Below the pieces are notes generated by a model. It was not told the DNA's origin and made no database searches. It saw nothing but the letters and a program-made list of their open reading frames with translations. A program made the translations under genes and the position numbers. From contig CANLOR010001096.1 in NCBI GenBank assembly GCA_947492865.1, positions 1 through 61,563 on the forward strand: 61,563 nucleotides of DNA. The letters run 5' to 3'. Positions 199-57,200 of the stretch are shown here, one piece after another. Position 1 is the stretch's first letter. The number at the start of each line of letters is the position of its first letter. Origin of the DNA: Aurantiphycus algarum. GTDB lineage: Bacteria; Bacteroidota; Bacteroidia; Cytophagales; Cyclobacteriaceae.

Positions 199-1818
199 TT
201 ACCCAATTTCCTCTACCACTTGCTTATCATAGAGCAGTTCTTTTTCACCGAACAGCCTCTCCGCTGTTATTCCCTTGCTCTGACACTCCGCCACCAATCT
301 ATCAGACTGAAGGATAGGATTGGATTCATCGGTATATTTCACACTGCTTATAAATTCGACCCAAGGTTCCTGCCCCATAGCATATACATAAGCCTCTTTG
401 GGATTAAAGATATTGACCAGGGACATCCCTTTTTCACAATCGGAACCGGCCAGTCTTCTACTGCCATCTTTGTCCCTGGAAAGCTCTTCGGTACGCAATG
501 GTCCGTATAACCATGTCAGTGGCGCTCCGTCGCATTCCATACCCAGAAATATGACATCGATATCTCCTACCTGCCGGTGGACATGCTCATACAGCCTAGG
601 TTCCATCACTCTGGAATCTGCTACGAAAAGCAGTGAAAACTCATCGATTTTTACATGAAAACAAGCTTTGGCCTGAATATTCAGATCACTGTGCTCACCC
701 GTAAAAGGCAGGCCCGTGACTTTGGTATCTCCGAAAGAAATGGTTTCCATCTCGTCGATTTCGATGATATTGTCAAATCCTATACGGTTGAACATCAACT
801 TTAGGTTAGGATCCTGTAGCACATTGGTATTGGTCCTGGGCACGATGATGTTTTTTACCTTGTGTCTCAAGGGGAGCAGTGTTTCGAACAGGATATGGTC
901 CTGGTGATTATGGGTAATCAATATGTAGTCTATCGTATCGGGCAGATCTAGGTCCGAAAAATGGTTGACGTTGGAGTGGTATCCATAATAACTGATGAGC
1001 GGGTCAACGAGAATACTTACTTCTTTGGTTTCGATAAGTATACAAGCGTGGCCAAAGTACCGCATTCGGATTTTATCCCCACTGTACTTTTCATAGCCTG
1101 GGTAGGGTGTTGTGGTAAAAAGGTTTTCCAGCAACGTTTCCTGCTGGCCGTCCAAGTCGAAGAACGATTTTATGTGTTCTATCGTCTGCGGTGTTCGCCT
1201 CATCTTACTGATTTCATCTATGCCGGGGTGGTCAAAAGGTATTCTCAGGTGCAAGACGTCCGGTTCTTCGAGTTTAGGGGTACTCAGACAAAATGGTCGA
1301 TGGTCATTATCGGTAATCCAGAAGGCAATACTCTGTGTTTGGGGTTTGTAGTACTTACTTTCATAGAGCAAGGACTCGAATACTCTGAAAGAGGCGTTGT
1401 CGTTGAGGTCATAGGTCAGTTCTACGTATCCTTTGAGGATTTCGGGAACTTCTTCATATAGAGGCTCTAATGAAAAACCTTTTGGGTGATTTTTAAGTAT
1501 GGTGTCGAGTTCCTTGATAGCTTCTGCCAGTGCTATCATGTCAGCTTGATCCCGCAAGGTATTTTCTTTGAGCGATTTCACATCGTCCACTCTTTTACCT
1601 TCAAAATCCATAAAAGGCCCACCCAACATTTTAGGATTCTTTACCGCAGCGGCATGTATCTGTGGAGCCTGGATATAGGAATTCATTATCTTTAAGTGAC
1701 GTCCTGTGATGTTCATCGCAGCTGTAGCCGGTGATATGAGATGGGCCCATGCATACCATCCTTCAACTAGTGGTTCGATGACTACATTGGGTTTGAGGTA
1801 AACTGATCTTTCACTCAT
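199..1818 (-). CDS. CmlA-like non-heme di-iron beta-hydroxylase (N-terminal domain + metallo-beta-lactamase fold), probably acting on a carrier-protein-bound amino acid
   Basis: Track ORF of 539 aa with ATG at 1816-1818. The MBL-fold metal motif HxHxDH reads as 'ITHNHQDHI'. Size and two-domain layout resemble CmlA-type beta-hydroxylases. It is the last gene of the NRPS operon. The function rests on family resemblance read by eye. Confidence 0.6.
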   Translation of the reverse strand: MSERSVYLKPNVVIEPLVEGWYAWAHLISPATAAMNITGRHLKIMNSYIQAPQIHAAAVKNPKMLGGPFMDFEGKRVDDVKSLKENTLRDQADMIALAEAIKELDTILKNHPKGFSLEPLYEEVPEILKGYVELTYDLNDNASFRVFESLLYESKYYKPQTQSIAFWITDNDHRPFCLSTPKLEEPDVLHLRIPFDHPGIDEISKMRRTPQTIEHIKSFFDLDGQQETLLENLFTTTPYPGYEKYSGDKIRMRYFGHACILIETKEVSILVDPLISYYGYHSNVNHFSDLDLPDTIDYILITHNHQDHILFETLLPLRHKVKNIIVPRTNTNVLQDPNLKLMFNRIGFDNIIEIDEMETISFGDTKVTGLPFTGEHSDLNIQAKACFHVKIDEFSLLFVADSRVMEPRLYEHVHRQVGDIDVIFLGMECDGAPLTWLYGPLRTEELSRDKDGSRRLAGSDCEKGMSLVNIFNPKEAYVYAMGQEPWVEFISSVKYTDESNPILQSDRLVAECQSKGITAERLFGEKELLYDKQVVEEIG

Positions 1819-3573: not shown

Positions 3574-3604
3574 TTTTCTTCTTTTTGGTTTGATGATTAA
3601 TTTT

Positions 3605-36011: not shown

Positions 36012-37112
36012 TCAAGTTTCGGCCATGGCGTTATATTTCATGATCTGTCGTTCTTCTGCTTTTTTAAGAACATTGATATTCTTGAGTGCGAAACCGGTGT
36101 AGCCATTGACCCGCTGTACCAGCTCGTAGAAGAAGAAGGGCCTATCACCAAAGGGTTTGATGAATTTCTGCAATAGGTAGCCGTCACCTTCTTTGTCGAT
36201 CAAGATGCCCTGTTCTTCGAGTTCATCGATATCGAAACCTTTCAGATCTTCATTTTCTCTTAGCAGGTCATAGTAAGTAGGTGGAAATTGAACAAAGTCT
36301 ATACTGTTCTTTCTCAGCTTTTTTACTGTTTCTACCAAATCATCGGTGGCAAAGGCTACATGATGTATACCAGGACCAAAGTTGTCGATATTCTGCTGGA
36401 CTTTTGAGTTAGGAGCATGACTGTTGGGTTCTGCCATTACAAAGGTCATACGCTTGTCCGGTGATTGATTGATGTTCAGCACCAGACCCGTCTTATTGTC
36501 CTCGCTCTTACTGATACCCTGTATCATCTGGGTACCCAAGGTATCTTTCAGATAGGATGTCCAAAAATCGATTTGGTTTATTCTGAGTTCACTGGCGATG
36601 TGGTCTACTGAGGTGAAGCCGTTGTCAAACGTCGCCTTACTCTCTACTACCTTCTCATAACCAGGTCGGAAAATGCCCTCATAGTTATCTCTATTGGAAA
36701 ATACGATTTCATTCTGGTCATAGAGCCTGATGGAGGCTTCTTCTATATATCCTTTTTCATCCTCGGTAGTGACGGGGAATCTAATGGGGATACCTCCTGC
36801 TGCTACAGCATGATCGAAAGCACTACTTACATCATCAGTAGCTATGACCACTCTTTTCATCCCCAGGGAATTGGTATTGACAAATGAAAGTACCTCGGCG
36901 GCATCCGTAGAGTTAGCGGAGGTCAGTGCCGCAGTTATAACCAGTTTTATCTCTCCTTTTTCCAGTAGATAAGAGACCACTCCTTTCGTCCCATTTTCAG
37001 GACTTTTATAGCCTATTATATCAAAGCCCAGAGCATTACTATGCCAGTATACCAAGGGTTTGGCCATGGATACGAATAGTTCTATATAATCTATATGATG
37101 GTTGGTCTTCAT
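36012..37112 (-). CDS. 4-hydroxyphenylpyruvate dioxygenase family enzyme (HPPD or 4-hydroxymandelate synthase, HmaS-like)
   Basis: Track ORF of 366 aa with a two-VOC-domain layout. Family motifs are 'GIHHVAF', 'GYLLQKFIKPFGDRPFFFYELVQR' and 'GFALKNINVLKKAEE'. Its start overlaps the stop of the upstream fusion gene by 4 nt. I cannot separate HPPD from HmaS by eye. Confidence 0.85.
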   Translation of the reverse strand: MKTNHHIDYIELFVSMAKPLVYWHSNALGFDIIGYKSPENGTKGVVSYLLEKGEIKLVITAALTSANSTDAAEVLSFVNTNSLGMKRVVIATDDVSSAFDHAVAAGGIPIRFPVTTEDEKGYIEEASIRLYDQNEIVFSNRDNYEGIFRPGYEKVVESKATFDNGFTSVDHIASELRINQIDFWTSYLKDTLGTQMIQGISKSEDNKTGLVLNINQSPDKRMTFVMAEPNSHAPNSKVQQNIDNFGPGIHHVAFATDDLVETVKKLRKNSIDFVQFPPTYYDLLRENEDLKGFDIDELEEQGILIDKEGDGYLLQKFIKPFGDRPFFFYELVQRVNGYTGFALKNINVLKKAEERQIMKYNAMAET

Positions 37113-39196
37113 ACCATTTCTGCTTTTAGGTTTGCATATTTTTTATCGTTGATCGATACTTTATCCTTCAGGTATTCTGCGAAACTTCTTATTCCTATTT
37201 CTATTTGCTCCAGAGAGAGGTTGGAAAAGGTCAGCCTTATCTCGTGCTGCCCCCCTTCACCCAGATAGAAATAGGTCATCGGGAAGTAGATTACTCCATA
37301 TTTATCCGCACACAAAGCGACCTCCTCTTCGGTCACCTCGAACGGTACTGTCATCTTTAGGAAAAAACCGCCTTTGGGCTCGTTCCAGATAATGTCCGCT
37401 GCCCATTCGTCTTTGAAGGCTCCTACGTAGGTATCCAGGGCGGAAATGATTTTGTCTCTTTTGATTTTATAGGTTTCGTATTTTTCCTGATTGAGCTTAC
37501 TCAGCGAATAATCCTGATCGATCAGTATACCGGCAAGAATGGCCTGTGTTATGGAAGGGGTGTTGTTTGAAAACAAGGCCTTGACCTTGGCCATCTCATC
37601 ACTCAGGGCACTGACTTTTCCCGGTGTGTACTCCACCTCTTGCCCCGCTGCGATGATGCCCGCTCTTATCCCGGGAAACAATGATTTGGAAAATGAACCA
37701 ACATAAATAACCCGTTTGCCTCTATCCAAGGATTTTAGTGTTGGGTTTCTCTTTTCTTCATAGGTAAAACTATTGTATACACCATCCTCTATAATATAGA
37801 AGTTATGATCGTTCGCCATCTGTAGCAATTTCAATCTGTTTTCTACGGGCATACAGCAACCGGAGGGGTTCTGGTAGTCAGGAATCACATAGACCAGTTT
37901 GACATTGGCCCCACTATGATTGACCGAAATGACTTTGTCCTTCAATTCATCCAAGTCGATGCCGTTCTGGTCCGTACTTACCGCTCGGGTGTCGTATCCA
38001 AAAACTTTCGCAAAGCTGCTAACACCTATATAACTGGGGTTTTCCAACAGTACGACATCCTGTCCTCTATTGCATAGGGTAGAAACGATTACCGCAAAAG
38101 CTTCCTGCGCACCCAAAGTCACCAATATGTCTTCGGGCTTGACCTTGATACCTTCGTCTTTTTTCAGGTACTCGGCGATGACCTCATTGATGATGCCCTT
38201 GGTTTTGTTATACTGCCCCAAGCCATCGATCAGTTCCCGTCGGCTCTTATGACTGTCTTTTTTCTCCAAGTAGTCGATATAGGTATGGAATTTATCCATA
38301 TGGCTTTCGATATTGAAAAAGCGCTGGTCCGGTTGCCCTGCTGCGAATGAAATACTGTTAGGGAACCTGAATTGAATATCGTTCAAGAAGCCAATCACAT
38401 TGTTAAAGCCGTTCGTTAGCGTGGAGTTCACCGATAGTTTAGCAGGCTCTAGGTCTACTTCATCTTCAGCTGCCTGTTGTAAGTTGGCGATAAGGTAGTC
38501 TTCCAGGTCTTTCAGACAATCGAACAGATCATCAAAAGAATCAATGACAAAATATTCTTTTTGCAACTTATAGTTATCATAGGGCGTATTAAGGATCTTG
38601 CTAATGTCAAAAGCATGCTTGGGAATATCGGGGTTCTTAACGTTGGTTATTTCACTATCGGAAGTAATGATGGCACCACCATAGGGCTTCATTTCTCCAC
38701 TCTCCCAAATCACCCCCATCTCAAATGTGAACCAATACAAACGTCCTAAAAATTCAACTGCTTTTTCATTCTCCACATACTTTAGTGCAATAATGCTGAA
38801 CTCGGTCAGAAAGCGATAGAACCGCTCATTGGTCAAAAGTGGTATATGCCCATAGATATCATGAAAAATATCAGGGTCTTCACTAAAGTCGAGTTCATGC
38901 AGCTTTCGTACGGGAACAGTTATGGGATACTTTTTATTGATCAGCATGAAGAAAAAATCTCTGGTAGGGATGAGTCCCGAAACAGGAATCAAAGACCAAC
39001 CCGAAACCTTTTTCAGGCGGTCACTCAGCTCCTCTATCTTAATTACCTTAGACGAGTCCAAGGACAGTATGTCAAAGCCCTTCTGGTACTCAATAGAGGC
39101 TTTTTTATAGTTTAGGCTCATTTGGCGGTCGTTTAGCTTAGACCATGTCAGATGGTCTTCTGCTGTATAGGCATCATAGTCTTGAGAAATAATCAT
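37109..39196 (-). CDS. Fusion protein: pterin-dependent aromatic amino acid (Phe) hydroxylase domain + class I/II PLP aminotransferase domain
   Basis: Track ORF of 695 aa. The N-terminal 240 aa or so (about 38477-39196) match bacterial PhhA-type hydroxylases ('EDPDIFHDIYGHIPLL', 'LYWFTFEMGVI', 'PYGGAIITSDSE', 'YFVIDSFDDLF'). The C-terminal 430 aa or so (about 37112-38413) are aminotransferase-like and carry the PLP-lysine motif 'SFSKSLFPGIRAG'. Confidence 0.85.
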   Translation of the reverse strand: MIISQDYDAYTAEDHLTWSKLNDRQMSLNYKKASIEYQKGFDILSLDSSKVIKIEELSDRLKKVSGWSLIPVSGLIPTRDFFFMLINKKYPITVPVRKLHELDFSEDPDIFHDIYGHIPLLTNERFYRFLTEFSIIALKYVENEKAVEFLGRLYWFTFEMGVIWESGEMKPYGGAIITSDSEITNVKNPDIPKHAFDISKILNTPYDNYKLQKEYFVIDSFDDLFDCLKDLEDYLIANLQQAAEDEVDLEPAKLSVNSTLTNGFNNVIGFLNDIQFRFPNSISFAAGQPDQRFFNIESHMDKFHTYIDYLEKKDSHKSRRELIDGLGQYNKTKGIINEVIAEYLKKDEGIKVKPEDILVTLGAQEAFAVIVSTLCNRGQDVVLLENPSYIGVSSFAKVFGYDTRAVSTDQNGIDLDELKDKVISVNHSGANVKLVYVIPDYQNPSGCCMPVENRLKLLQMANDHNFYIIEDGVYNSFTYEEKRNPTLKSLDRGKRVIYVGSFSKSLFPGIRAGIIAAGQEVEYTPGKVSALSDEMAKVKALFSNNTPSITQAILAGILIDQDYSLSKLNQEKYETYKIKRDKIISALDTYVGAFKDEWAADIIWNEPKGGFFLKMTVPFEVTEEEVALCADKYGVIYFPMTYFYLGEGGQHEIRLTFSNLSLEQIEIGIRSFAEYLKDKVSINDKKYANLKAEMV

Positions 39197-39226: not shown

Positions 39227-42200
39227 TTAAAAGTTAAATAATGGTTCATCTTCACTTAATCCTTCGGAAGTTGTCTGTTGGTCGCTGACCATCTCTATAT
39301 CTATGAGGTCGGTATCCATTTGATGAGTTTGATAATGAATTATCTTTAGAAGATGATCTTTGAAATCAACCATGGTATTTGTGTCGAACACTCCTACTTT
39401 ATAATTTACGGAGCATAGAATCTCACTTCCATCGGCACGTTCCATAAACATGATATCCAAATCAAAGTCACCTTTATCCTGTTCTTCGAACTGTGATTTG
39501 ATTTTTATTCCCTCTAGGTCATTTTCACTTGTACTTTGGTCCTCTTTGGTATAAGATATCATGACATTGAACAGTTTCCCTTCGATCAGCTGACCCGTCC
39601 GATGTAGGTCTCTTATGATTTCATCATAAGGATATGCCTGATGCTTCCATGCACTGAACACACTGTCCCTAACCGTCTGAAGTAGCGTTTTTAGGGTGTC
39701 ATCGTTTTTGAAAGTGGTTCGTATAGGGAGTGTGTTCACATAGAACCCGATTTGGTTTTCAAGATCGGGATGTATCCTTCCGGATACAGGAGTACCTACG
39801 ATGATATCATTTTCCCCCGTGTACCTATACAGTAATACTTTCAGTGCTGTCAGTAAAACGATGAACACAGTGCTACCGGAATCAAGACTGAGTTTTTTCA
39901 GGTTGTCGGTCACCTGAGTGGGTATGGACAGTGTATAAGTACCCTTTTCCTCAGTGCCACCCACGGTAAGGGCCGAATAAAACTCAGATTGTGGAGGCAG
40001 TTCTTGTAACGTCGACTCCCAATACTGCTTGTGCGAAAGCAGTTTCTTTTGCTGTAGGAGTTCCTCATACCAGACGACATAATCTTTGTATTGAATTTTC
40101 AAGGGAGTTGTTTTTTCGACTTCAGTATCGAAGGATGTGCTGTAATGCTGTAACAGATCCTTTATCAGTACCTTCATGGACCAGCCATCGGCGATAATAT
40201 GATGGAGAGTAAGGATAAAGATGAAATGTTCCTCCGAGACGTGTACCAGTATCCCTCTGAGCAATGGCGGTTTTTCCAAATCAAAAACATGATTGGACTC
40301 CTCTCTGATAATGACCTGCGCTTTCTCGGCACTGGTGTCCTCGTTTCGGTAATCCAGATAGACCATTTTAAAATCAGATTTTTCCACATCCAATATCCGT
40401 TGTTTGGGCATGCCTTCTATATTGACGATGACACTTCTGAGTATCTCATGACGTACGAACAGGGCATCAAACGCTTTGCGGAAAGCTTCGACGTTTAGTT
40501 TTCCATAGAGGTGATGAGCTCCCGAAATGTTATACTGCGTGCCCAGAGGGTCGAGCTGGTTCAGAAACCACATCCGTTTCTGGGCATTGGATACTTCATA
40601 GTAAGATTTTTCATCAATAGGTATTATAGGCAGGTAATTGTCCCGTTGCTGAGACTCGATATGTGTTGCCATCAGCTCTGGTGTAGGAAATTTGAATATG
40701 GCCACCAAATCCAACTGGATACCCAATATCTTGTATAATCTTGTCACTAAGCGCGTAGCTTTCAGGGAGTGTCCCCCAAGTTCAAAGAAGTTATCGCTCG
40801 GTCCAATGTTCTTTTTCCCTAAAATATCTTCCCAGATACCTACAATCTGTTTCTCCAATTTTGACATTGGCCCTGTTTCCACTGCATCTAGGTCCGTGGA
40901 CCGGCCGGTAGGAATAGGTAGCTTCTTTCTGTCCACCTTGCCACTATTGTTCAGTGGGAAACTGTCTAGCTGAACAATAGTCGAGGGTATCATATAAGCA
41001 GGGAGCACTTGCCTTAGGTATCCGCGCAGTGCGCTTTCATCGACTGGTACATTTCCTACCACAAAAGCGACCAATGACTTATCCCGAAAAGTATCCTCTT
41101 TTACCAGTACTACCGCTTCGTTGACTTCTTGGTATTTTTCCAAAGCCCGTTCGATTTCTCCGATTTCAATCCTATATCCCCTCAGTTTTATCTGGTCATC
41201 CTGTCGGCCAAGAAACATAACATTTCCATCAGGCAAGTATTTGGCCCTATCTCCTGTCCTGTACATCCTGCTATAGTGGTCCTGTGCCTGTTTTGCAAAG
41301 GTCTTTCTACCCGAAAAGCTCCAAATCGTATACTCCTGTATACCGTCGCGGCTGGATACAATCAATTGGAAGTTTCTGATGACGATATCCCTTGCCCCAA
41401 GATCATAGAATACCTGAACCATCTTCAGTTTGTCTTCTTCCATATTCTTTCCAAGACATATCCGGTCTTGATTCTGGGTATAGACTATTTTCTCTTCTAC
41501 ACCTCCATCGTCTTCCGGCACAATAGGTAGCAGTGTCTGAAGGGCAAACCGCCCGTCTTCTTTAAGAACCCCGAGAAGATTTTTGATTAGATTTTGAGGG
41601 TATTCGACCCTGTCCAATAACAATGTGGAAAGAGAAAAGTCCTTACTGCCCGGTAGTAGGTCATGTGCGGTACAAAATTCTTCGAATGGCAAGTCTACTT
41701 CTGCCAAGTATGCTTCCAATCCTATATCTCTGGCTCTTTGGATGAAAAATGGACTGAGTTCGAAACCTATTACCTCAGCACCCAGTTCTTGGAGTATACT
41801 CAGTACTTCAGCATTGCCAAAACCTAGTTCCACTCCTTTTTTTCCTGTGAAATCATCCAATGCAAATAATTGCTTGACCACAGAAGCATCCATACCCACC
41901 GAAGCGTAACTATTGTGATAGCCTTCTAAAAAGTACCTGCTGAACCCCTCGTATTTGACAGGGTTACCTTGGTGTTTGTCCAAGAAGGCTTTAGTGCCGA
42001 CTACTATGTCAGCATCAAGGTTTTGGGTCAAGTCATACAGTTTGGATATATCTTGAATGGCCTCATTGGTTATCGGAGGCTGTTTTTGTGCCTTTTTTCT
42101 AAAATCCTGCACCTGCTGCTTCCAGGCTTTGGCCTGTAGTCGACCTCGGTCTTCGTACTTATCGGATAGGAAGAATGGATTGGGCAGAAACTTTTCCAAT

Positions 42201-45200
42201 GTAGCGACGGTATTGTGAAGGTATCCTTCAGCCATGCCGAGACCGGAGAGATAAAGATCTCCTTCAACGCCAGTGCTCACGGGGTTTCCATCATTGTCCA
42301 AGATATAGGAGTCCGTATTGGAGATAGGTTTACCTATCGCTACAGGACTATCGCCCTGTAGCGATAGCATTTGGTAATCTACTTCGTGCAAATGCGAATA
42401 GACGGAATATTCTGTGGGTCCGTAGGCATTCATGAACCTACACTGTGCCGACCATTTTCGGGCCAGACTCGGTGGACATACTTCACCTACCGATACTACG
42501 GACATCTTATCTATGTGCTTTATGGCCTCAGGGGACATCTGGTGAAGCAGTGACGGAACGAATACCCCAACCGATATCTGTTGCTCATTGATAAAGTCTA
42601 CCATACCTTCCGGTGTCAAGTACTCCGAGTACATACACAGGGTAGCCCCATTGAGCATGGCCATGAACGTTTCCCCAATGGCACCGTCAAAACTGTAGGA
42701 AAAGTGCTGTAATACCCTGCTCTCAGTACCTATTGTAAAGTTTTTTTGCTGCCAATTTGTAAGGTTGACCACACCTCTGTGAGGAACCAAAACCCCTTTG
42801 GGCTGTCCTGTCGATCCAGAGGTATAGATGATATAGGCCGGGTCGGCATCATTTGATCTCACCTTAGGGTTATTGATACGTGCCGGAGCATCTTCGACAC
42901 TATCCACAACTTTTACCTTGGTACCGTTCCAGCCCGACAGTACCCCCTCCGCTGTATGATTCTCCTTATACAGTAGCACACTCAGCTGGGTATCTTTGAG
43001 TATATAAGCTATCCGTTCAGCGGGAAGTGATGGATCTATAGGGACATATACCGCTCCTGCTTTGAGTACTGCCAGCAAGCTGATGATCAGCATAGGAGAC
43101 TTCTCCATGACTATACCGACAAAATCTTGTGGGCAGACGTTTTGGTCTGTGATCAATTGATGTGCCAATTGATTGGCCCGTTCATTGATAGAATTGTAGG
43201 TCAGCCGTTGATTTCCAAAGATAATGCCTATTTGTTCGGGCCTTTGAGCCACTTGTTGTTCGAAGGCCTCCACAATCGTTTGACCATAGGGGTATGCTGA
43301 TCTGGAGTCGTTGAACACTTGAATGATTTCGGTATACTCCTGATGGGACAAGTAATCGATATCTTTGATCTTTGCATCAAACTCACCCGATACAGCCTTG
43401 GCTATGTTTCGATAATGCTCCAAGGCCCGTTCCATTCGATCTTTGTTGAACAAAGCCGTACTGTAGGTGATTTCCAATCTGATTGTCCCATTTTTGGTAA
43501 GGTGAAAGTTGAATGTAATATCGAATTTGCTGCTCACACTTTTGACCTCTAATGGTCTAATATGCTCATTGTCCACTAGTTCATGGTCGCTCGCATGCAG
43601 TGCAACCATGACATCAAATAGTGGTGATCGGCTCAGATCACGCCGCAGGTCGAGGCTCTCGACCAGCAAATCGAAAGGATAGGATTGATGTTCATAGGCT
43701 TTTAAGGTATTGGATTTTACGTTCTCCAATACCTCACTGAATCGGTCATCAGCAGAAAGTTGGTTTCTCAAAGGCAAGGTATTTACATAAAAACCTATTT
43801 GTTCTTCGAGATCGGGATGCTCCCTGCCCGCCACTGGAGTACCGATTACAATATCTCCCTGTCCGGAATATTTATATAATAGCACATTGACCGATGCTAT
43901 CAAAAACATGAACAGGCTTGACTCTGCTGTAGTAGATAGAGAGATTATCGCCTGGGACAGCTCCCTCTCCAGAGTAATACTCACGGCATCGCCGGCAAAA
44001 CTTTGCAGCAAAGGGCGCTGCCTATCGAGTGGCAGGTCCAACATAGGGATATCGCTATCGTATAGCTTCTCCCAGAAGTCCTTATGTGCTGTGTACACTG
44101 GTTCCTGGATAGTTTTACGCTGCCAAGCTGCATAGTCCTTATAGTGTATGGCCAGTGGAGTTTTGAAATACGTTTTTTCTTCTTGATAGCAATTGTAAGC
44201 TTCCATAACCTCTGTTATCAAAACGTTCATGGACCAGGCATCGGAGATGATATGATGAATGGTAAAGAGCAATACATATTGTTGTTCGGCCAGCTCCAGT
44301 AGTTTCGCCCTCAATAGTGGTCCTTGCTCTAGGTCGAATGGTTCCTCAGCCTCTTTGAACATCCATTGATAGGCCTCTTCCATCGGATTTTCGCTATCCT
44401 TTAGGTCGATGCCTTCCAGCTCAAATTCCATTTTCTCATGCACTTTTTGCCTGAGTTCCCCGTCTACTTGCAGAAATGTTGTTCTCAGTATCTCATGCCT
44501 ATCGATCAAACTGTTGAAGCCCGAACACAAAGCCACACTGTCCAGCTGTCTATCGATCCGATAGGCTCCAGGGATATTGTAGGATGCCTTCTGTCCCTCC
44601 ATCTGGTGAAGTATCCATAAACGTTTCTGCCCTAGAGATACCTCATAATACGCTGCTTGATTGATGGGACTGATGGGTTCGTAGACCAACCCACCTTGTT
44701 TTTTGAGCTGTATAGCAAGTTCTTTGACCGTGGGATACCTAAAAAGTGAGGTAATATTGGTATCGATACCAATACTTTTGAGTATTTTGGAAACTACTTT
44801 TGTCGCTTTCAATGAGTGACCTCCCAGCTCGAAAAAGTTACTGTTGACTCCTATTGGGCTTATTTCCAATACTTCCTCCCAAATAGTTATGAGGGATTCC
44901 TGTAGGTATCCCTTTGGTGCTTCGTAGGTTTCTGAACTCGCACCCTGAAATGAATAGTCACTCAAAAGTTCCTTTTTGTCGATTTTTCCGTTGCTGTTCA
45001 GTGGGAAGGCTTCCAATTGGACAAAGTCCGCAGGAATCATATACTCTGGGAGCTTATTTCTCAAATAGGAACGCAACAGTCCTTTTTCCACGGGTTCTTC
45101 GGCAATAAAGAAAACGCAGATCAGTTTTTCATTGGTATTGCTTTCGAATACGGTAGCTACGGTTTCTTTGACCAAAAACGATGTGGACAGCATCCTTTCT

Positions 45201-48200
45201 ATCTCACCAAGTTCTATGCGATAGCCCCTTACTTTCACTTGATGATCTGCCCTCCCCATAAATTCGAGCTTGCCATCATTGTTCCATCGTGCCAAATCAC
45301 CTGTTCTATATAATTTCCCACTACCATAAGGGTTATCGATAAAACTACTATTGGTCAGTTGAGGCTGTTCAAAGTATCCCGTAGCCACACCGGCCCCGGC
45401 AATACACAACTCTCCGACTACTCCTATGGGTTGCAACTTATTATTTGTGTCCAGGACATGCACTTTTACATTGTCAAGAGGTCTTCCCAAAATGTTGCCC
45501 TTGCGTAGTTCACCATGGTTTGATTTGGGATATTGGATAGAGGTGCAGAATATTGTCCCTTCGGTCGGTCCATAGGTAACTACGATATCGGCATTGGTAA
45601 AGGTCTGAGCCAGTTTTGTCAAAAGATGGTCCGGTATGACATCCCCGCCGACAAATAATCTTTCTATCCCCTGAAAGTCCTCCTCAAGTCCATTTTCGAT
45701 AATATGATCGCATATCCTTTGGTACAGTGCCGGTACCGTATCCAGCATGCTGGCTTTTTTCAACAGTGCCACGAAATGGGGCATTTCCAGCAATGCTTCC
45801 TTTCCAATGATGATGGATTGTCCTCCATTCGTCAGTGGTGCAAGTAATTGAAATAAAGAGATATCAAAAGCGTGAGAGGCAATGAACGGCATTTTCAATC
45901 GATGGTCCGCCCCATAGTTTTCTTTTACGTTCTCCAGGAAATGGGACAGGTTGGCATGGCTTACCCCCACCCCTTTTGGCCTACCTGTAGTACCGGAAGT
46001 ATAGATAATGTAGGCTAGACTATCGTTGTCAAGGAAGTTTTCTTCGAGTAGTGCGATTGACGTATTGTCCGTCTGTGCATTGGCTATGTGGATAACATTG
46101 ACTCCATACCTTTTGGCAGATTGCACATCGCTATCCACTAAAAGTGTCTTCGCTCTACAATCCGATAGAATAAAGCGAATCCGATCGTCCGGATAAGTCG
46201 TATCGATAGGTACGTAACAGGCCTTTACCTTAAAGAGACCAAATAGGGCTGCCACTAATGCTATGGATTTCTCTACCAGTACCCCCACGACATCCCCTTC
46301 CCTGACACCCGCATCATATAACGTTGCGGCTATCTGCACAGATTTATCTTCGAGCATACCATACGTCACTTGCTCGCTGCCCGATATCAGGGCGATTGCC
46401 TTCGGATTTTGAGCAACCTGTTCCTCAAACATTTCCAAAACTGTTCGACTATGACCGTACTGCTTATCGGTAGCATTGAACTCAAGCAATAAGCGATGCT
46501 GTTCTGCCGTTTCCAACCAAGCAATGTCCGTAAGTTTTGTATTGGGCTCAGAGAGTGTATTGGTCAGTAATTGTCGGTACCTTCCTACCATGACACTGAT
46601 GGTCCGCTCGGAAAACATATCCGTATTGAATTCCACCTCCAGTGACAGTGTCTCAGTACTTTCTATAAACCGAAACGAAAGGTCAAATTGACTGATATGA
46701 ACATCGAGGGGAAAAGGTGAAATCTCCACCTCACCGAACGTGTTCAATCCATCTCCATGCAACTCCTCATTTTCATGAGAAACAATAATGTCAAATAACG
46801 GTGACCGGCTCAGGTCTCTTTTCAGGTCAAGTTTCTCTACCAAGTAATCAAACGGTAAGGACTGATGGTCATAGGCCTCCACGGTGGTTTTTTTCACCCC
46901 TTGCAATAAGTCATGGAAGGTAATGTTTTTATCGAATCGCGTACGTAAAGCGATCGTATTGATGTAAACTCCTATCTGTCCTTCCAAGTCAATGTGATCT
47001 CTACCCAGAACAGGGGTACCCAGTGTGATATCGTTCTGATCGGTATATTTGTAGATCATCAGTTTGAGTACCGTGATCAAAAGCATGAAAGAGCTGACAT
47101 CATTGGAACGGGCATACTTTCTGAGTGATACTAGCAGTGCTCGGGGAATGGTGTACTCCATTTTGCTGCCATTGAAGCTTTTCAATGGTGGTCTACCGTA
47201 GTCCGAAGGTAAATTAATGGGAGTAGGCTGTTCCTGAAATTGTTGTAGCCAAAACTCCTTATGCTTTTCCATGGCCGGTCCTTTCAGTAATTTTCCGTGC
47301 CAGTTGGCATAGTCTTTATAGTTTACCTTCAATGGTTTCGGGCGGGGAACCCTGCCCTGACTAAATGTCTCGTAAGCGTGAACTACTTCCTCTACAAGTA
47401 CCTTTGTAGACCATCCATCGGAGATAATATGGTGCATAGCGAACAACAACACAAAGCTATCTACCTCTACCTGTAGCAAAGTAACTTTCATCAGAGGGTC
47501 CGATTTTAAATCGAAGACCGTTCTTATGGTTTTTTCGGCATAGGTAGAAAGTACCTTCTCTTGATGGGAGTGTCCACATAGATCGATATGTTCCATAGGA
47601 AAGACATAAGTATCGACATCCTTTACTTGTTGTACGAGCTTGTCTCCTTGTAGATAAAAATTGGTCCTGAGTATCTCATGGCGCGAAACCAATAACTGGA
47701 ATGATCTGCTGAGCGCATCGATGTCCAGTTTACCTTTTATGCGGTGAGCACCGCATATGTTGTAAGCATTGCCGGTATCGTCCAGTTCTGACAAGAGCCA
47801 GATTCTTTTCTGAGCGTGGGATAGCTCGTAATGGGACTGTTCCCTTATGATTTCGATAGATTCAAAACGGTGTTTTTCCGTATTTTCTATTATCCGGGCG
47901 ATTTCCCGTACCGTAGGACACTTGAAAATAGCCCCTATCTCCACCTCTACATCGAACTGTTGTGCCAGTCTGGAAATAAATCTTGTTGCTTTGAGCGAAT
48001 GTCCTCCAAGCTCAAAAAAGTTATCGTTCTTGCTGACCCGCTCCCTATCAAGTATCTCCATCCATAGGCGAGCGACCATTTTTTCATGAGGTGTTTCCGG
48101 AGCTTCATATGTTGTCTCCGAAAAGCTGTCATTCTCATAGCCCAACAGTGCCGACCGATCGACTTTGCCACTGGTATTGAGTGGCATACTTTCCAATAGG

Positions 48201-51200
48201 GCAATTGTACTGGGTATCATATAATAAGGCAAAAGCGTTTTCAAATAGGCCTTTACTTCATCTTTACTGATAGGGCTTCCTGTAGTAAGGTAGGCATGTA
48301 GGCTTTTATCACCGACATTGTCTGCTTTGACCATAACCACAGCCTCCTCTATGGATGCATGCTTTTCCAAGGTCCTTTCGATTTCCCCTAGCTCTATCCT
48401 GTAACCCCTCAGTTTGACCTGATCATCGCTTCTACCAATAAAGTCAATATTTCCGTCCGGAAGGTATTTGGCCATATCTCCAGTCTTGTACATTCTACTA
48501 AAATGGATTTGCGGATCGAAAACAAATGTTTTGGTACCGCTAAAGCTCCAAAGGGTATACTCTTGGATACCATCCCTACTGGCTACTACATAAGGTATAG
48601 GTACTATCCTGATATCCCTCGCACCCAGATGGTAGAGTACCTGTACCAGTCTGAGCTTATCGTCAGCTTCATTTTGTCCCATGCATACCCAATGCTTTTC
48701 TTGGGAGTACACTATCTTATTTTCCACGTCGCCATCATCTATCGGTACTACGGGAAGTAGTGTTTGAAGTGCAAAACGCCCTCCTTCTTTTAAAACGCCG
48801 AGTAGATTGCCTATCAAATTATGTGGTTTTTCTACCCTGTCCAACAACAGTGTGGACAGGGCGAAGTCCTTGCTTCCTATTTCCATACCGTATGCCGATC
48901 GGAAAGCATTAAACTCCACATCTACCACACCATGTTGTACCGAAAGCCCTTGTTGTCGGGCATATTGTACCGAATAGGGACTCAGCTCCAAACCGTGTAT
49001 GTCCGCATCCATAGACCGGAGGACATTCATGATTTCGGCATTACCAAAACCCAGTTCGACACCTTTTTTTCCGCTAAGGCCATCTTCAAAAGGAAAGAGA
49101 TAGTTGAGTACCTCTTCATTGATACCTACCGAGGCATAACTATGATAAAGTCCTTCAAAAAAGTAGCGGCAGAAACAATCGTATTTTACCTTATTGTCCC
49201 TATGATTTTCAATATAGCCAATAGTGGATAGCCGAATGTCTTCATCCAGTGCGGACAGCTTCTCCGACAATGCTTCGATGTCATTGATTTCATAGGCTTC
49301 CTGATTTTTCTCCGGTACTGCCAGTGGGAATCCCGAAGACCTGAAGTCTTCGATTTCTTTTTTGCTGCCTTCAAACTGCACATCGTGGATGAGCTCATAT
49401 TTATCGGAAAGGAAGTATGGGTTGGGTACAAATTTCGACAAAGTAGCTACGTTGTTGTTTAGGTAGCCCCTAGCTATACCCGGCCCGGATAAATACATCT
49501 CTCCTTCGATGTTGTAGGCTACCGGTTTTTGAAACTTGTCCAAAATATAGCTGTGGGTATTGAAAATCGGCTCCCCAACGGGAACGGTACCCTTAGCCTG
49601 GTATCGAGATTGTTCTATTTCATAGAGATGAGAATAAACAGTATACTCCGTAGGCCCATAGGCATTCATAAAGCGGCACTCGGCAGACCACTTTTTTGCT
49701 AGGTCCTGTGAACACACCTCACCGACAGATACGATGGACATCCTGTGGATATGCTCGATTTGAGAAGGCTCCAGTTGACGGAGCATCGAGGGTACAAATA
49801 CTCCTACGTCCACCTGATACCGATTGATGAAAGCAATAAGCTGTTCGGCGGTCAGTTCTTTGCTATACATACACAGGGTAGCGCCATTGAGCAATGCCAT
49901 AAATGTTTCTCCTACGGCACCATCGAAGCTGTAGGAGAAGTTCTGGAAAATGTTGCTTTCTTCCGAAAGTCGGAAATTGACCTTTTGCCACTGGGTGAGG
50001 TTGATGACGCCATGGTGTTCGATCAGTACTCCTTTCGGCCGGCCGGTAGACCCGGAGGTGTAGATCACATAGGCCAAGTCGTCCGGAGTATTGATTCTTT
50101 TTGGATTCACATCTGATGTGTCGATCAAGTCCATCTGTATATCAAGAGCAAAGAGGTTACCGTTCCACCCTTCAAGGCTGAACATACTTTCTGAATCCGT
50201 AAGTAAAGAGTGGAGTCCTGTATCTTCCAGAATGTAGTTGATTCTTTCCTTTGGTAGGTCAGGGTCGATAGGCACATAGGCACCTCCCGCTTTTACTATT
50301 GCCAGAATGCTCACGGCCACCTGCTCAGAGCGGTGAAGCATGATTCCTACGAGGGTATTTCTCTCTACTTCAAATTCCTGTCTTAGGTAATGCGCCAGCC
50401 TATTCGCCCTTTCATTCAACTCCTTGTAAGTAATGGATACCTCTTTGAAGACAATGGCCACAGCCTCGGGGTGTGCGGCGACATGATCTTCAAATACCTC
50501 CACAATAGTCCTCTCGTAGTCATTCTGTTGAAGGGTATCATTGAAATCGCTCAGTATAATATCTCTCTCCTCAATCTGCATATACTCGATAGCCGTCAAG
50601 GGTTCTTGATGTTTTGTGACGATTTCTTCCAGCAGATTTTCATAGTGTGCTATAAATGTAGTAATCCACCTTTCGTCAAACAGGTCGGTACTGTACTCTA
50701 CGACAAAATCTATGCCTTCGTCCTTTTCGATACCGAATAGCCATATATCGGTTTGTGCAAAACGATACCCCGCATCCATGGCTTCGATTGTTAGTTGAGT
50801 ATCAAGACTATCAAAGTAGTCATGCCGTTTTCCATGCCAGGTGAAGCCTACGTCATACAATAGTGACCTGCTGAAATCCCGCTTTAGCTGTAGATCCTCT
50901 ACGAGATATTCCAGTGGGTAGTTTTTATGCTTATCGGCCTCAAGTAAGACCTCTTTGGTGCTTTTCAACAGTTCATCGAAAGGTGCGGTGGCATCAAAGG
51001 TGAGCCTTAAGGGTACATTACAGATAAAATATCCGATTTGCTCCTGTAATTCCGCCCGGTCTCTATTGGCAATCGGGGTGCCTATGACCATATCCGTTTG
51101 TGCTGAATATTTATGGTAAACTATCGCCTGTGTTGCCAGTAATACCATGTAAAGGCTGGCTTCATTTTGTTGGGCTATCTCTTTGAGTCTATTCTTAAGC

Positions 51201-54200
51201 GTTTTATCAATACTAAACTTCTTTTGATCACCATAGAAGGTCTTCCGGGCAGGACGTATACTTTCGGTGGGGAGATTCAGTAGAGGGACCCCATCGGCAA
51301 ACGTTGCTTTCCAATAGGAACGGTTCTCTTCCTCCTCCTCTCGGAGGACTTGATTGTACCATGCTGCATATTCTTTATGTTGGACTTCCAGTAATGGCAG
51401 TGCATGCGTCCGCCCATCTATATCGGCTGCGTACAGGGACAATACCTCCCTGATCAGTATCTCTATGGACCAGCCATCGGCTATGATGTGGTGCATGGTA
51501 AATAAGAAAACGTATTCGCTGGTATGCATCCGTATAAGCTGCGCACGGACCAGCGGGCCATTCATTAGGTCAAAAGGACATTTCGATTCCTCTTCTATCC
51601 TCTGGGCCAGTTCCCTGTTAGGATTATTATCTTTGCTCAGGTCGATTTTCTCTATTTTGAATCCGAGATTACCATTTTCTATCACTTGCCTGACTTCTCC
51701 ATCAATGGTTCTGAACCTAGTCCTAAAACTCTCGTGCCTTTGAATGAGCATATCAAAGGCTCGGGCAAACGCCCTTTCATCCAAATCCCCACTCAAGCGA
51801 TGTACTGCGGGCATAGTATAGACCAGTTTCTCCTCCATTTGGTCCAGCATCCAGAACTGCTTTTGCGAAGGAGTGACCTCATAATGTTCCTGTAGAGGTA
51901 AGGTAGGGATTTTCTGTAGGGTGCGATGGTCTTTATTCTCGATCAGTCTTGCCTGTTCGGCAATCGTCGAATGGACGAACACATCTTCCAACACTATTTT
52001 GATACCGAACTCCCTTTCGATGGCAGAGATCAACCGAATGGCGCGTAGCGAATGTCCGCCCACTTCAAAAAAGCTCTGCCGAGTGCCCACTTCATCTATC
52101 GCTAGGACAGTCGTCCATACTTGGCAAAGTCGGTATTCCGTCTTGCTTTGAGGAGTAGTAATGGAGTTTCCGTTTTTCTCGTTTTTCACTGGCAAAGGCA
52201 ATACCTTTTTGTCCAATTTTCCGCTTGGGGTCATCGGTAGGTGATGATCGATGTTCACCATATGAGTAGGGACCATGTAACTGGGCAGTACCGTCGATAG
52301 GTAACTTCTTAGTTCCGTGGACATCACATCTTTGTCCGCTACATAATAGGATACGAGTTCGTACTCACCCCTTTCATTGGGAATGGCCAGCGTAGCAGCC
52401 TCCTTGATCTGTTCATGCCCTCGGAGCACACTGTCAATCTCTCCGGGTTCTATTCTATGGCCTCTTACTTTCACCTGATCGTCCACCCTACTCAGGTACT
52501 CCAAACTACCATCGGGAAGCCACCGTACAATATCTCCTGTTTGATAGCAGCGTTTGCCTACGAGCGGCAATACCTTGAACCGCTCTTTGGTGAGTTCGGG
52601 TTTGTTCAAATAGCCTTGGGCCAGTCCATCTCCGTCAAGATACAACTCTCCATAAACCCCTATGGGCACCATTTGCCCTAATGTGTCCACAACATAAGCT
52701 CCTGTATTGTGAATCGGCTTACCGATAGGCGCATGGTTAAGTCCAGAAACCTCAGCGCATGTGGCCCAAACGGTAGTTTCGGTAGGGCCGTACATATTCC
52801 ATACTTCTTTTGCCCTCTCAGACAAGCGTTCATTCAAATCATCGCTCAATCGCTCCCCACCTGTCAGTACCCTGAGGTCCTTTCTTCCCTTCCAACCGCT
52901 CTCCATCAGTAATGACCACATACTGGGTGTGGCCTGCATCATGGTCACTTGTTCTTCTTCTATGATTCGCTGTAAGCTTTCGGTATTCGTGGTATCCGCA
53001 CTGGCCACGACGACAACCTGTCCTCCACAAATGAGAGGAAGGAACATTTCCATAATGGATATGTCAAAGACATAAGTAGTGATGGCTATCAATCGATCTT
53101 CCTTCGTAAATCCCGGAAAGGATTTCATACTCAGCAGGAAATTGGTCAATCCTACATGACCTACCTCCACCCCTTTTGGCTTACCCGTAGATCCGGAAGT
53201 ATAAAGTACATAGGCCATGTACCCTTCACTGTCCTTCAATGGGTACATCTCTTTTAGAGACTGTTCCTCCATACCCGTATTCTCTGAATATGAGTCAGTT
53301 GTTATCACCCGAACAGAAGGACTCACTTTTTCCAAGAGAGGAAGGTACTTACCGACCGTGACCAATAATTCCAATCCGGTATCCTCCAAAATATAGTTCA
53401 TCCGCTCTATAGGATGCTGCGGATCTATGGGAACATACCTGGCCCCCAGCTTCCAGATAGCAAGTATCGTTACGATAACCTTTTCTGAACGACCGAGCAG
53501 TATACCTATGGTATCATTAGGCAGAACTGCAAAGTCGGCCTTCATTTGAGCAGCCAAACCATCTACCTTCTTATCGATATCGGCATAGGTAAATGCCTTT
53601 TCCCGAAATACCACGGAAGTGTCCTGTGGGCATTTTTCGACCTGCTCTTTGAACAAGTGATATACATTTTTGTCCTTTGGGTAGTCCTGTCTCTTCGGGT
53701 TAAACGTTTTCAGCAGCTGTTCCTTTTCAACAGTAGGTAGATAGTCAATGGCGGCAATAGCTGTCCCTTCGTTACTGAGTGCATACCTAAGGATTTCCAT
53801 CAGATGACCTCCCATTCTTAGAGCGGTACTCTCTGCAAATAGACTACAATCATATTCCAACCTCAAGGCCATCCCCCTAGGACTTTCCTCAAAGTAAAAG
53901 GTCAGGTCATATTTACTGGCCGATTTGCTCTTTGCACGCCGTTGCAGGGTCAGGTTTCCCAGCTGATAGGCATCAATATTCTGTTCCGTGCTTTGATAAC
54001 TGACCATAACATCAAACAATGGAGCACGGCTCAGGTCCCTACGTAGTCCCAATGACTCTACCAACAGGTCGAAAGGGTAATCCTGATGTTCCAGAGCTTC
54101 GAAAACCATATGTTTTATCCGCTGGAGCAGTCCTTTGAAGCTCTCGCCTCCTTTTAGCTTAGAGCGCAATGGCAGTGTATTGATATACATACCCAACTGC

Positions 54201-57200
54201 TCATCCAAACCAGGGTGATTCCTTCCCGCTACTGCCGTACCTATGATGAGGTCTGACTGGTGACTGTAGCGATAGATAAGTACATTCAGTGCTGTCAGTA
54301 AAGTCGCGAAAGTACTGACCTGTTGACTTTTGCTAAAGGTCTTGACCTGATTGACGAGCTCCTTATCAAAGAGAAAGTGACTGATGGCACCTTCATGAAG
54401 CTTTTTATGGGGTCGTTTGTAATCTGTGGGCAGATTCAGGACAGGCAGTTCTCCTGACAGCCTGTTCAACCAGTAATTCTTATCGTTTTCCAAAAGCCCG
54501 GAAGATAAGCTATTATTGTTCCAGAGGGCATAGTCGCGGTATTGTAGGCGCAGTTCCCCGAGAGGAGAGGGTTTGTTTTCCAATGCAGCGCTATACAGGG
54601 TAAGCAGCTCCTGCATCAGTATTTTACCTGACCAATCATCAGTGATGATATGATGCAAGGCAATGAAAAGTACGTGGCTATTCGCAGCCACCTTTTTGAT
54701 GTCTACTTTTAACAAGGGGCCACTCTCTAGATCAAATGCAGTGGTCAGCATTGTATCTACCTGTTCGCTCAATTTTTGCGCTATATGCTCACTATTTTGA
54801 ATATCGGTATACCCGATTTCGAATCCATATTCCCAAAGCGCGTTTATTTTCTGCCTAGGTTCTCCATCCACGGATACAAAAGTTGTTCTTAGTACTTGGT
54901 GGCGCTGGAGCAAGGCAGTAAAGGCCGACTTTAAACTGTCCATATCCAGATGACCTTCCAGCTCATAGGACTCATACTCGTTATAGGCCAAGGTACCATG
55001 CCCTAAATGGCTCAGTACCCATAATCTTTTTTGTGCATTGGAAACTTCATAGAATTCCTGCTCGGGTTGCTGTGGAATCTCCTTGTACATTTCCTGTTTG
55101 GACAGCTCTATGGCACTGACCAAGTCCTTGACGGTAGGGTTCAGGAAAATATCTTTTATCGATACCTTGACCTTCAAGTCTCTGGACAATACAGCTATCA
55201 ATTGGGTCGCTTTGATAGAGTTGCCACCATACTCAAAAAAATCATCTTCAGCCCTTAACTCATTTATATCAAGCACTTTTGACCAGGATTCCAGTATTTT
55301 CACTCCCAGATCACTGAGCGGTGCTTCCTCATACTGTTGCTCATCATCATCTGCCTTCGTTTGCAGTAGGCCCTTTCTATCCACTTTACCCATCGTGGTA
55401 AGTGGAAAGGCACTTAGACCAACAAACTTGGAAGGTATCATGTAATAAGGGAGATAAGTACTCAGATAATTCCGTAACTCCTTTTTTGTCAATGATTTGC
55501 TACTGACCAAGTAGGCATGTAACTGCCCTGATTCCGTGGTCATGGCGACGACATCGGAAATCAGCTCATGGCGCATCAGTACTTTCTCTATTTCTTCCAG
55601 CTCTACTCTATACCCTCCTATTTTTACCTGAAAATCCTTTCTACCTAAAAATTCTATTTTACCGCCAGTGGTCCACCTTCCCAAATCTCCCGTGAGGTAC
55701 ATTTTCTCATCGGGACGATAGGGGTCGTCCACAAATTTTTCCTCGGTAAGTTCCGGTCTGTTAAAATAACCGCTGGCCAGGCCCGCGCCTCCAATGGCTA
55801 TTTCACCCACGCCTCCTTCGATTTTCAGGCGGTGGTTTTCGTCGAGGAGATAAATTTGATGATGAGCAATGGGAGTCCCTATTATCTCAGCATCCTCCGG
55901 TTTTTCTATCTCGTTGAAGGTTACGCATACAGTGGTTTCCGAAGGACCATAAGTATTAAATAGTCTCCAGGTTCCCCACAAGTTGGAGATGTAGCTGGGC
56001 AGGAGTTTATCCCCACCGCTGATTATCGCTCTGAGACTGCTGAGGCTTTCGGCATGTTGGTTCAGTTCCTTGATGACCAGCGGTGTGGTACTAAGGACAG
56101 TAGCACGATGTTTTTGTATTACTTCCAGCAGCTCATCGGTATTTTTACCGCCTTCTTCGGCGATGACCAGCTTTCCCCCCACACTAAGCACAGGAAACAC
56201 TTCTTCCACGAATGTATCGAAGGCTATGGAGGATTGTTGGATAATGGCATCTTTCTCGTCAATCTGAAAGTAGGCCTTGAACGTAGCTACGTAGTCGCTC
56301 ATAGCGCTATGGGGTATCATCACACCTTTCGGGTCACCTGTAGTAGCGGAGGTGTAGATAATATAGGCCAAGTGAGTGTTTTCTACTCTCTCATTGCTAT
56401 CAATGGGGGACAGTTCTGCGATGCTGCTTTGGAAAAGCGCACTATCTACAATGATGACCTCATGCTGCACTTCGATGAGGCCTTCGGCACTGGCAGTATC
56501 TGTCAATAACAGGGAGACTTTACTATCATGGAGGATATAGTTTACCCTTGCTTCCGGAAAGTCCGGATCTATCGGCACATACGTAGCCCCTGTTTTCAGC
56601 ACAGCGAATATCGTGGGGATCAATAAAGCGGACCTTCCCATCATTATGCCTATCCTATCTCCTACGCTCACAGCAGACCTTTCTTTGATACCCCGAGCTA
56701 TTTGGTTTGCTTTCTCGTTGATTTGCTGATAGGTGAACCGTCTTTCTCCACATACAATAGCTTCGTGGCGAGGAGTCTGTGCGGCTTGTTTTTCGAATGA
56801 AACATGGACAGGTTCCAATGAGATATGGTCCTCTGACCTAGATCGGGAGTAGGCTATCAATTGTCGTCGCTCCTCGGACAGTAGGATGTCCAGTTCCGAC
56901 AAACGTACCTCGGGTCGGCCCATGACCTGATGTATCAAATAGTTGAGATGACGGATGAGCTTTTCGATCTGCATAGCACTAAAGCGGTCCGTGTTATAAC
57001 GAATATCCAATTGCAACTGCTCCTTTTTAGGAATAAAATCGAACTGCAAATCCACAATACTGACGTGATGCTGTACGCTATAATCCTCTATGGTCAGGTT
57101 TTCCATTTTATTCTTCCAACCCGAATGGTCGAAATTCTGAAACAGCACAAGGATATCGAATAGTGGTGATCGATTTATGGTAGATTTCAATCCTAGGTCC

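Follow-up and report, generated by a model that had tools for sequence, protein, structure and literature searches.

Analysis of a 61,563-nucleotide stretch of the Aurantiphycus algarum genome (contig CANLOR010001096.1, hereafter the window) revealed a nonribosomal peptide synthetase (NRPS) of 6986 amino acids in which a methyltransferase (M) domain is spliced into an adenylation (A) domain between core motifs A6 and A7. Judged by its motifs, this feature genuinely belongs to the interrupted A domains of family 6, whose M domain is of type VI, as defined by Lundy, Mori and Garneau-Tsodikova (RSC Chem Biol 2020, PMC8341866), and it is present twice in the protein. Structure prediction and profile comparison place the M domain as a remote relative of METTL9 and the DREV family, and we consider it probable that the domain methylates the side chain of a residue bound to the thiolation (T) domain, using a conserved Asp-Arg dyad.

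A methyltransferase domain between motifs A6 and A7

The open reading frame (ORF) encoding the NRPS (39227..60187, minus strand), delineated from the ORF list, motif positions and a Pfam scan, comprises a FAAL-ACP loading unit, five condensation (C)-A-T modules and a final C domain, with the insert found in modules 3 and 5. The minus-strand gene run of the window forms one hybrid NRPS-polyketide synthase (PKS) cluster. Module 3, encoded on the minus strand throughout, begins its A domain with an N-terminal part spanning A1-A6 (49412..50494, aa ~3232-3592; Pfam AMP-binding E=7e-76), followed by the first copy of the inserted type VI M domain (copy 1; 48497..49411, residues 3593-3897, 305 aa), which was recognized from the translation, Pfam Methyltransf_11 and AlphaFold. 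The C-terminal part of the A domain, with A7 'YKTGD', A8, A9 and A10 'NTSGKVDR' (48152..48496), was matched by Pfam AMP-binding_C and is confidently modelled in the A(M)T unit, and the T (carrier) domain lies beyond it (47894..48085; Pfam PP-binding E=1.8e-14). Copy 2 in module 5 (41270..42169, minus strand, aa 6007-6306, 300 aa), detected by phmmer (E=2.9e-96) and alignment, is 54% identical to copy 1 and occupies the identical A6/A7 insertion site.

Within module 3, motif A6 'GPGIARGYLNN' starts at aa 3568, 'FVPNPYF' at 3586 and A7 'MYKTGD' at 3899. The spacing from the start of A6 to the start of A7 amounts to 332 residues in module 3 and 327 in module 5, compared to 29-30 in the A domains of this ORF that have no insert. 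When both interrupted A-T units were aligned with 11 uninterrupted ones from the same cluster, the insert boundaries fell directly after 'F(V)xNP(Y/F)' and directly before '(K/R)(M/L)Y(R/K)TGD', with 300-305 extra residues taking the place of a loop of 3-5 residues. This was the sole extra block of the window copies, falling between a6 and a7 and not at the a8-a9 or a2-a3 positions of families 1-5. The NCBIfam adenylation model TIGR01733 was matched in two stretches, the first of which stops shortly ahead of the insert, at position 353 of the 409-position profile. The insertion point is A6/A7, not A8/A9 or A2/A3. As the insert occurs twice in the ORF and in 76 protein cluster representatives at E<=1e-30 (see below), it is no chance feature.

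These results agree with much of the original prediction, which was made from the letters of this DNA. The strings it quoted are all present where it placed them, and the interval 48497-49411 translates to 305 residues. Its separation of about 305 aa between A6 and A7 in module 3 was borne out by the motif spacing and by the alignment with the 11 uninterrupted A-T units, and the possibility it raised, that the true site might be A8/A9 or A2/A3, was answered by the same alignment in favour of A6/A7.

Assignment to family 6 and type VI

The prediction's further claim, that A6/A7 insertions were undescribed, was refuted by the literature. Lundy et al. sorted bacterial interrupted A domains into seven families, including family 6, with an M domain at a6-a7 (A6-M-A7), and family 7, with an M domain at a2-a3 plus a second at a6-a7; the a6-a7 M domain was termed 'type VI', with a length of 300±4 residues and four motifs (PMC8341866). 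A 2024 review of A domains gives only the a2-a3 and a8-a9 sites, so the a6-a7 site is little known, but it had been described, named and given motifs in 2020, families 6 and 7 already catalogue it, and the reading of the A6/A7 interruption as an undescribed architecture is almost certainly wrong. Searches for later literature on a6-a7 interruptions turned up Lundy 2020 alone. In that study no type VI member was characterised and no product was given; the authors suggested O-methylation of a hydroxylated aromatic substrate, given that Phe was predicted for the A domain and that conserved-domain hits were of the UbiG type (PMC8341866).

Both window copies carry their M domain between a6 and a7, the site that defines type VI. 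Copy 2 (300 aa) falls within the 300±4 range and copy 1 (305 aa) exceeds it by one residue. Motif i, G(V/A/T)(D/E)(F/I/L)GxGxG, reads 'GVELGFGNA' in both copies with the last G replaced by A; a Gly substitution in this motif was noted within the authors' own set (PMC8341866). Motif ii, GxxxxG-hydrophobic-(D/E)xxPxx(V/I), is fitted completely by 'GAEVIGFELSPFFI' in copy 2, while 'DADIHGLELSPYSV' in copy 1 (containing 'HGLELSPYSV') fits apart from the first G, which is D. For motif iii, DF(A/V)-hydrophobic-(S/T)x(L/M)xLD(R/Q), copy 1 is exact ('DFALSTLLLDR') and copy 2 has S for A/V ('DFSLSTLLLDR'), and motif iv, G(R/K)F(A/S)(I/L)(Q/G)T-hydrophobic-LP, is 'GRFALQTLLP' in both. Copy 1 thus matches motifs iii and iv exactly and copy 2 motifs ii and iv, and every other motif differs at a single position.

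Fold and relationship to METTL9

The insert scored 32.3 bits with Pfam Methyltransf_11 (E=1.6e-7), exceeding the curated cut-off of 21.2, with weaker matches to related class I families. AlphaFold modelling of the insert alone (predicted local distance difference test (pLDDT) 81.4, predicted template modelling score (pTM) 0.84) gave an N-terminal helical region and a seven-beta-strand S-adenosylmethionine (SAM)-binding core, and this predicted fold returned 814 methyltransferase-type matches in the PDB at E<=0.001. By profile and model, the insert is a class I SAM-methyltransferase fold, as had been predicted. The extra N-terminal region of about 110 aa, also predicted, is real and part of the domain, being covered by the structural matches and by free-standing homologues that align end to end.

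The SAM-binding motif I 'GVELGFGNA' (49037..49063, minus strand) was aligned by hhalign to METTL9 D151-G157 and corresponds to GxGxG with the final G changed to A in both copies, a variant also present in free-standing homologues. A conservation table of 46 family members showed that E119, G121, G123, E142 (the acidic end of beta-2) and D164 are conserved, and that copies 1 and 2 retain all nine invariant family residues.

Human METTL9 accounted for all nine of the best Foldseek matches of the insert in the PDB (E=2e-11, ~300 aligned columns, template modelling (TM) score 0.51-0.63), and a METTL9-like enzyme from Ostreococcus ranked 13th over 303 columns, whereas UbiG, NovO, CouO and other near-top matches covered ~210-260 columns, in the Rossmann core only, with ~210-240 columns for the three enzymes named. 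Comparison of the insert family with METTL9 by hhalign, using a METTL9 sequence verified against PDB chains, gave a probability of 96.4% (E=1.2e-9). Pfam DREV (PF05219) weakly matched 32 of the 46 members (best E=2e-7; P0057 33.6 bits). Three residues invariant in all 46 members, D191, R192 and P196, align with METTL9 D213, R214 and P217; the first two belong to the 'LDR' of 'DFALSTLLLDR' (48836..48844, minus strand; insert numbering), identified by family conservation and hhalign, and the METTL9 Post II motif 'NLLDR' corresponds to 'LxLDR' in the family. In METTL9 itself, D213 grips N3 of the imidazole and leaves N1 to attack SAM, and mutation of D213 or R214 abolishes activity (PMC10308197). 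METTL9-like proteins have been described as eukaryotic, and in seven-beta-strand methyltransferases the Post II motif varies with the type of substrate (PMC12269839). A literature search found no link between DREV and NRPSs. With an identity to METTL9 of 16-19%, the M domain is best regarded, on profile and model evidence, as a remote relative of DREV/METTL9 that would work like these enzymes rather than as a member of their family.

The profile of UbiG, the ubiquinone O-methyltransferase, matched positions 110-213 of the family profile only (~100 residues, E=5e-8). As this match is limited to the generic SAM core, the UbiG argument says nothing on the atom attacked or the substrate. At the profile level, the result weakens the published case for O-methylation while leaving O-methylation itself standing.

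The host adenylation domain

In the AlphaFold model of the A(M)T unit (pLDDT 84.6) the A core is confident, and the unit superposed on the LgrA and EntF A-T units in the thiolation state with root-mean-square deviations (rmsd) of 3.2-3.9 Å. The module 3 A core is 37% identical to TycA variants, with rmsd of 1.6-1.9 Å. The check on the whole A(M)-T unit that the original prediction proposed thus came out with the A-core fold kept, and the M domain is modelled as a separate globular insertion.

All ten core motifs (A1-A10), Asp235 and Lys517 are retained in the module 3 A domain. Its specificity code, obtained by alignment to GrsA-PheA, is DGGVVVAVY(K), in which Gly at positions 236 and 239 is followed by Val, Val, Val, Ala, Val and Tyr, giving a wide, hydrophobic pocket similar to Phe/Tyr codes with the floor residue Trp239 gone. 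As Asp235 is kept, the substrate would be an alpha-amino acid rather than a PKS-derived aromatic acid, and the pocket suggests that this residue is large and either hydrophobic or aromatic. Among single A domains in the PDB the nearest was 8xjz_C, which gave no hint of substrate. The host A domain comes from one subfamily, nearly all embedded homologues having the code D-(G/A)-G-V-(V/I)-V-(A/G)-V-Y, and the motifs 'SYSFDGAVGET' and 'NAYGPTEYTVYSH', present in the window and noted in the prediction as atypical, are hallmarks of this insert-carrying subfamily.

Distribution and natural variants

To place the window copies within the wider family, an insert profile was compared by HMMER with 1.84 billion protein cluster representatives, which yielded 76 at E<=1e-30. 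A near-complete M domain was found in 62 representatives, of which 52 were proteins of at least 450 aa, nearly all NRPSs or NRPS fragments, and about 10 were shorter and mostly free-standing (roughly 290-420 aa). A word-indexed protein search with the insert yielded four free-standing homologues only; the embedded ones come from the HMMER scan. At 50% identity the type VI family comprises at least 52 clusters and is wider than reported. The search pattern found both motifs in 37 embedded homologues, all of which had an A6-A7 distance of 314-356 residues; the distance for P0038 is spurious, the pattern having missed the proximal A6. Homologues with a type VI insert only had normal A2-A3 (~79) and A8-A9 (68-81) spacings.

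A genome scan, queried with a 6-sequence alignment (the conservation table used 46 members), added Acidobacteriota, a cyanobacterial metagenome-assembled genome (MAG) and an Acetivibrio MAG to the phyla already known; the family is found in at least five phyla. The closest relatives of the window copies are from Bacteroidota, such as Fulvivirga imtechensis (48% identity), and the best genome-scan match was 49% identical. In a neighbour-joining tree the two window copies are sister sequences and the free-standing forms fall among the embedded ones, the tree being too weak to order their origins. Free-standing homologues of 287-337 aa cover the insert nearly end to end and share its 'WSFxG' terminus, and the N-terminal extension of ~110 aa would therefore belong to a complete, autonomous enzyme. 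Two such whole-insert homologues of 287 aa (L003 10001-10864 and L026 2651-3514) lie distant from any NRPS, in a conserved housekeeping neighbourhood of a major facilitator superfamily (MFS) transporter, the methyltransferase, ruvA, ruvB and isocitrate dehydrogenase.

In P0008 (A5 at aa 1818 versus the 5500s) and P0026 (1401 versus the 3600s), one A subfamily and code occurs both with and without the insert in a single protein. The M domain would therefore be an optional tailoring unit on which the A domain does not depend. A backbone N-methyltransferase was additionally found in the same A domain in three homologues, at a2-a3 in P0064 (family 7) and at a8-a9 in P0029 and P0057. In the latter two (aa ~1425-2240 and aa ~217-1400, respectively) a type VI M domain at a6-a7 is combined with a type I-like N-methyltransferase at a8-a9, a double interruption that, going by the motif positions, is outside the seven families of PMC8341866. 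With a bona fide backbone N-methyltransferase able to reside in the same A domain, it is very unlikely that the type VI domain is one itself.

A locus in Rugamonas sp. CCM 8940 (L013, 9710-10864), encoding P0032, was considered as a natural 'A-T then separate M' arrangement and rejected as a decayed relic. P0032 is a stand-alone gene product of 384 aa encoded just after an NRPS. Its M domain looks intact and is bordered by degenerate remnants of the end of A6 and of A7, and the protein appears to be what is left of an interrupted A domain.

Proposed function and alternatives

We propose, with moderate confidence in the general scheme and low confidence in its regiochemistry, that the type VI M domain acts in the manner of DREV/METTL9. 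The A domain would adenylate a large hydrophobic or aromatic alpha-amino acid and load it on the T domain of its module, which would then present the residue to the M domain. Self-contained within a surface loop of the A core that otherwise has 3-5 residues, the M domain would bind SAM through motif I (GxGxA), E142 and D164 and methylate a side-chain atom of the carrier-bound residue, rather than its backbone, ahead of the next condensation. By analogy with METTL9, D191 may position or deprotonate the nucleophile.

Several observations weigh against this proposal. The A pocket has no acidic residue, one being expected for His, the substrate of METTL9, and the final residue of motif I is Ala instead of Gly. 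The window copy scored below the Pfam DREV (PF05219) cut-off (13.9 against 26 bits, E=0.03), and METTL9 N210, a SAM-contacting residue, corresponds to Leu in the insert family. Copy 2 also has Leu at the position of METTL9 Y295, which is Tyr in 37 of the 46 family members and Phe in 4; mutation of Y295 inactivates METTL9 (PMC10308197), and by this analogy copy 2 may be less active than copy 1. Literature searches found no biochemically tested family 6 member.

The published suggestion, a UbiG-like O-methyltransferase acting on the phenolic hydroxyl of a hydroxylated aromatic (e.g. Tyr-like) residue (Lundy et al. 2020), is the strongest competitor, though we regard it as doubtful. It draws on the Phe predictions and UbiG-type conserved-domain hits of PMC8341866, and an aromatic amino acid hydroxylase is encoded in the cluster; the Asp-Arg pair could conceivably deprotonate a phenol as well. 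The pocket, moreover, resembles Phe/Tyr codes with Trp239 changed to Gly, which would make space for para-substituents, as in GrsA W239 variants. However, the likeness to UbiG is confined to the core (positions 110-213) whereas the full-length fold matches METTL9, the retained Asp235 indicates an amino acid and not the PKS-derived aromatic acid that Lundy et al. also suggested, and the hydroxyphenylglycine-type genes of the window were not found beside other A(M) modules. Closer to METTL9 itself would be methylation of a ring nitrogen of the imidazole or indole type, in which the invariant Asp would grip the adjacent N-H as in histidine N-pi methylation. Structural and profile comparison both put METTL9 and a METTL9-like enzyme closest, and the shared 'LLDR' Post II motif is invariant, Post II being a motif that tracks substrate type (PMC12269839). 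Set against this are an identity to METTL9 of just 16-19%, METTL9 HxH-recognising residues that are not demonstrably conserved, and a hydrophobic pocket devoid of acidic residues, and this specific chemistry is unlikely. Acidic pocket residues are expected for a His-activating A domain.

Methylation of a beta-hydroxyl is about as improbable as ring-nitrogen methylation. Here a hydroxylase acting in trans (CmlA-like or TauD-like) would hydroxylate C-beta and the M domain would then methylate the hydroxyl to give a beta-methoxy amino acid. A CmlA-like diiron beta-hydroxylase gene, a candidate partner, is located in the window (199..1818, minus strand; Pfam CmlA_N E=1.7e-97), and in L014 and L017 tblastn placed a CmlA-like gene no more than 10 kb from the A(M) module, with TauD-family dioxygenases near A(M) in L007, L011, L018 and L022, such that hydroxylases occur within 10 kb in six other loci overall. 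Yet such hydroxylases are common across NRPS clusters and hence weak evidence, around half of the informative loci have no CmlA- or TauD-like hydroxylase within 10 kb, and nothing links the hydroxylases to a particular module. Less probable again is a loss of catalysis that has left the insert, or at any rate its module 5 copy, as a structural remnant. The change of the last motif I Gly to Ala in both copies, the Leu of copy 2 at the METTL9 Y295 position and the existence of decayed family relics such as P0032 in Rugamonas would be in keeping with decay, but both copies keep the nine invariant family residues, the G-to-A variant recurs in free-standing homologues and conservation of the family extends over at least five phyla. 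Side-chain methylation by a DREV/METTL9-like domain remains the reading we prefer. More tentatively, NRPS lines in at least five bacterial phyla may have recruited a bacterial METTL9 relative with the DREV fold into the a6-a7 loop of one A subfamily for a side-chain methylation of a bulky residue that has so far been attributed to no NRPS M domain, with ring-N and beta-O as candidate positions and the conserved Asp-Arg dyad in use, rather than for the UbiG-like phenol O-methylation suggested in 2020.

Neighbouring genes

Three minus-strand genes at 34264-39196 suggest a hydroxyphenylglycine-type pathway, comprising a fusion of a biopterin-dependent aromatic amino acid hydroxylase and an aminotransferase, an HPPD/HmaS-like dioxygenase, and a GlcD-like flavin adenine dinucleotide (FAD) oxidase that replaces the usual flavin mononucleotide (FMN) oxidase. 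Judging by specificity codes, their product may feed three 'DIF..G...' A domains (DIFDFGTVF or DIFTFGAIF). The idea that these genes travel with the M domain was ruled out, as they do not lie beside the other A(M) modules examined.

A further NRPS of 6360 aa in the window contains a GC-rich island at ~7700-10700 (0.55-0.59 against a background of ~0.44), which runs from the end of the module 4 T domain across the C domain of module 5 and through most of its A domain (Gln-like code); a C-A unit appears to have been acquired here by recombination from a higher-GC donor. At 22775-28618 (minus strand), a luciferase-like monooxygenase (MOx) domain is situated between the C domain and the A domain (Gly-like) of a TubC-docked module. 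Homologous MOx domains occur in L015 (1921-2886), L016 (6039-7004) and L019 (6227-7180), from different phyla, immediately upstream of the A(M) module and arranged as T-MOx-C. The region 31637-34258 (minus strand) encodes a protein of 873 aa in which ~260 N-terminal residues without a Pfam match precede an A-T pair, and is followed by a KS-AT-ACP module without reducing domains.

Significance and comparison with known systems

The window adds an example of a known architecture, present in two copies in a 13-residue lipopeptide line, and does not introduce a new kind of enzyme. Type VI is nonetheless the one M type in the classification of Lundy et al. without a characterised member or known product. 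New here are the link to METTL9, with D191 and R192 as candidate catalytic residues, the free-standing homologues, the natural pairs of A domains with and without the insert, the wider family, and the restriction of UbiG likeness to the SAM core. The P0008 and P0026 pairs provide natural controls for the contribution of the M domain, and the a6-a7 loop is a third place where nature accommodates an entire inserted domain, which is useful when bifunctional A domains are to be engineered.

Among known enzymes, METTL9/DREV (PDB 7y9c, 8gze, 8bvi), a eukaryotic protein-histidine N-pi-methyltransferase, shares with the insert a full-length fold that includes the N-terminal helical region, SAM-binding residues (the D151/G153/G155 region and E174) and the Asp-Arg of 'LLDR'. 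The Pro four residues further on is also kept in the insert, and the 'PY' Tyr (Y295) in copy 1. Unlike METTL9, the insert is bacterial and NRPS-embedded, and its substrate is presumably a carrier-bound amino acid in place of an HxH peptide. TioS A4a-M4-A4b and other A domains interrupted at a8-a9 (types I-III M; PDB 5wmm) likewise have a methyltransferase spliced into a loop of the A domain, and their M domains act on the residue after T loading, the same principle that is proposed for the window. Their site, however, is the A-sub loop a8-a9 rather than the A-core loop a6-a7, their M motifs are unrelated to those of the window, and the A(M)T model did not superpose on TioS (rmsd 28 Å). Ultimately, the closest counterpart is family 6 itself, in which the host A domain also sits in C-A-T modules and is predicted to activate an aromatic or hydrophobic residue; the two copies in one protein, the motif I Ala and the absence of the first motif ii Gly from copy 1 set the window apart in nothing essential.

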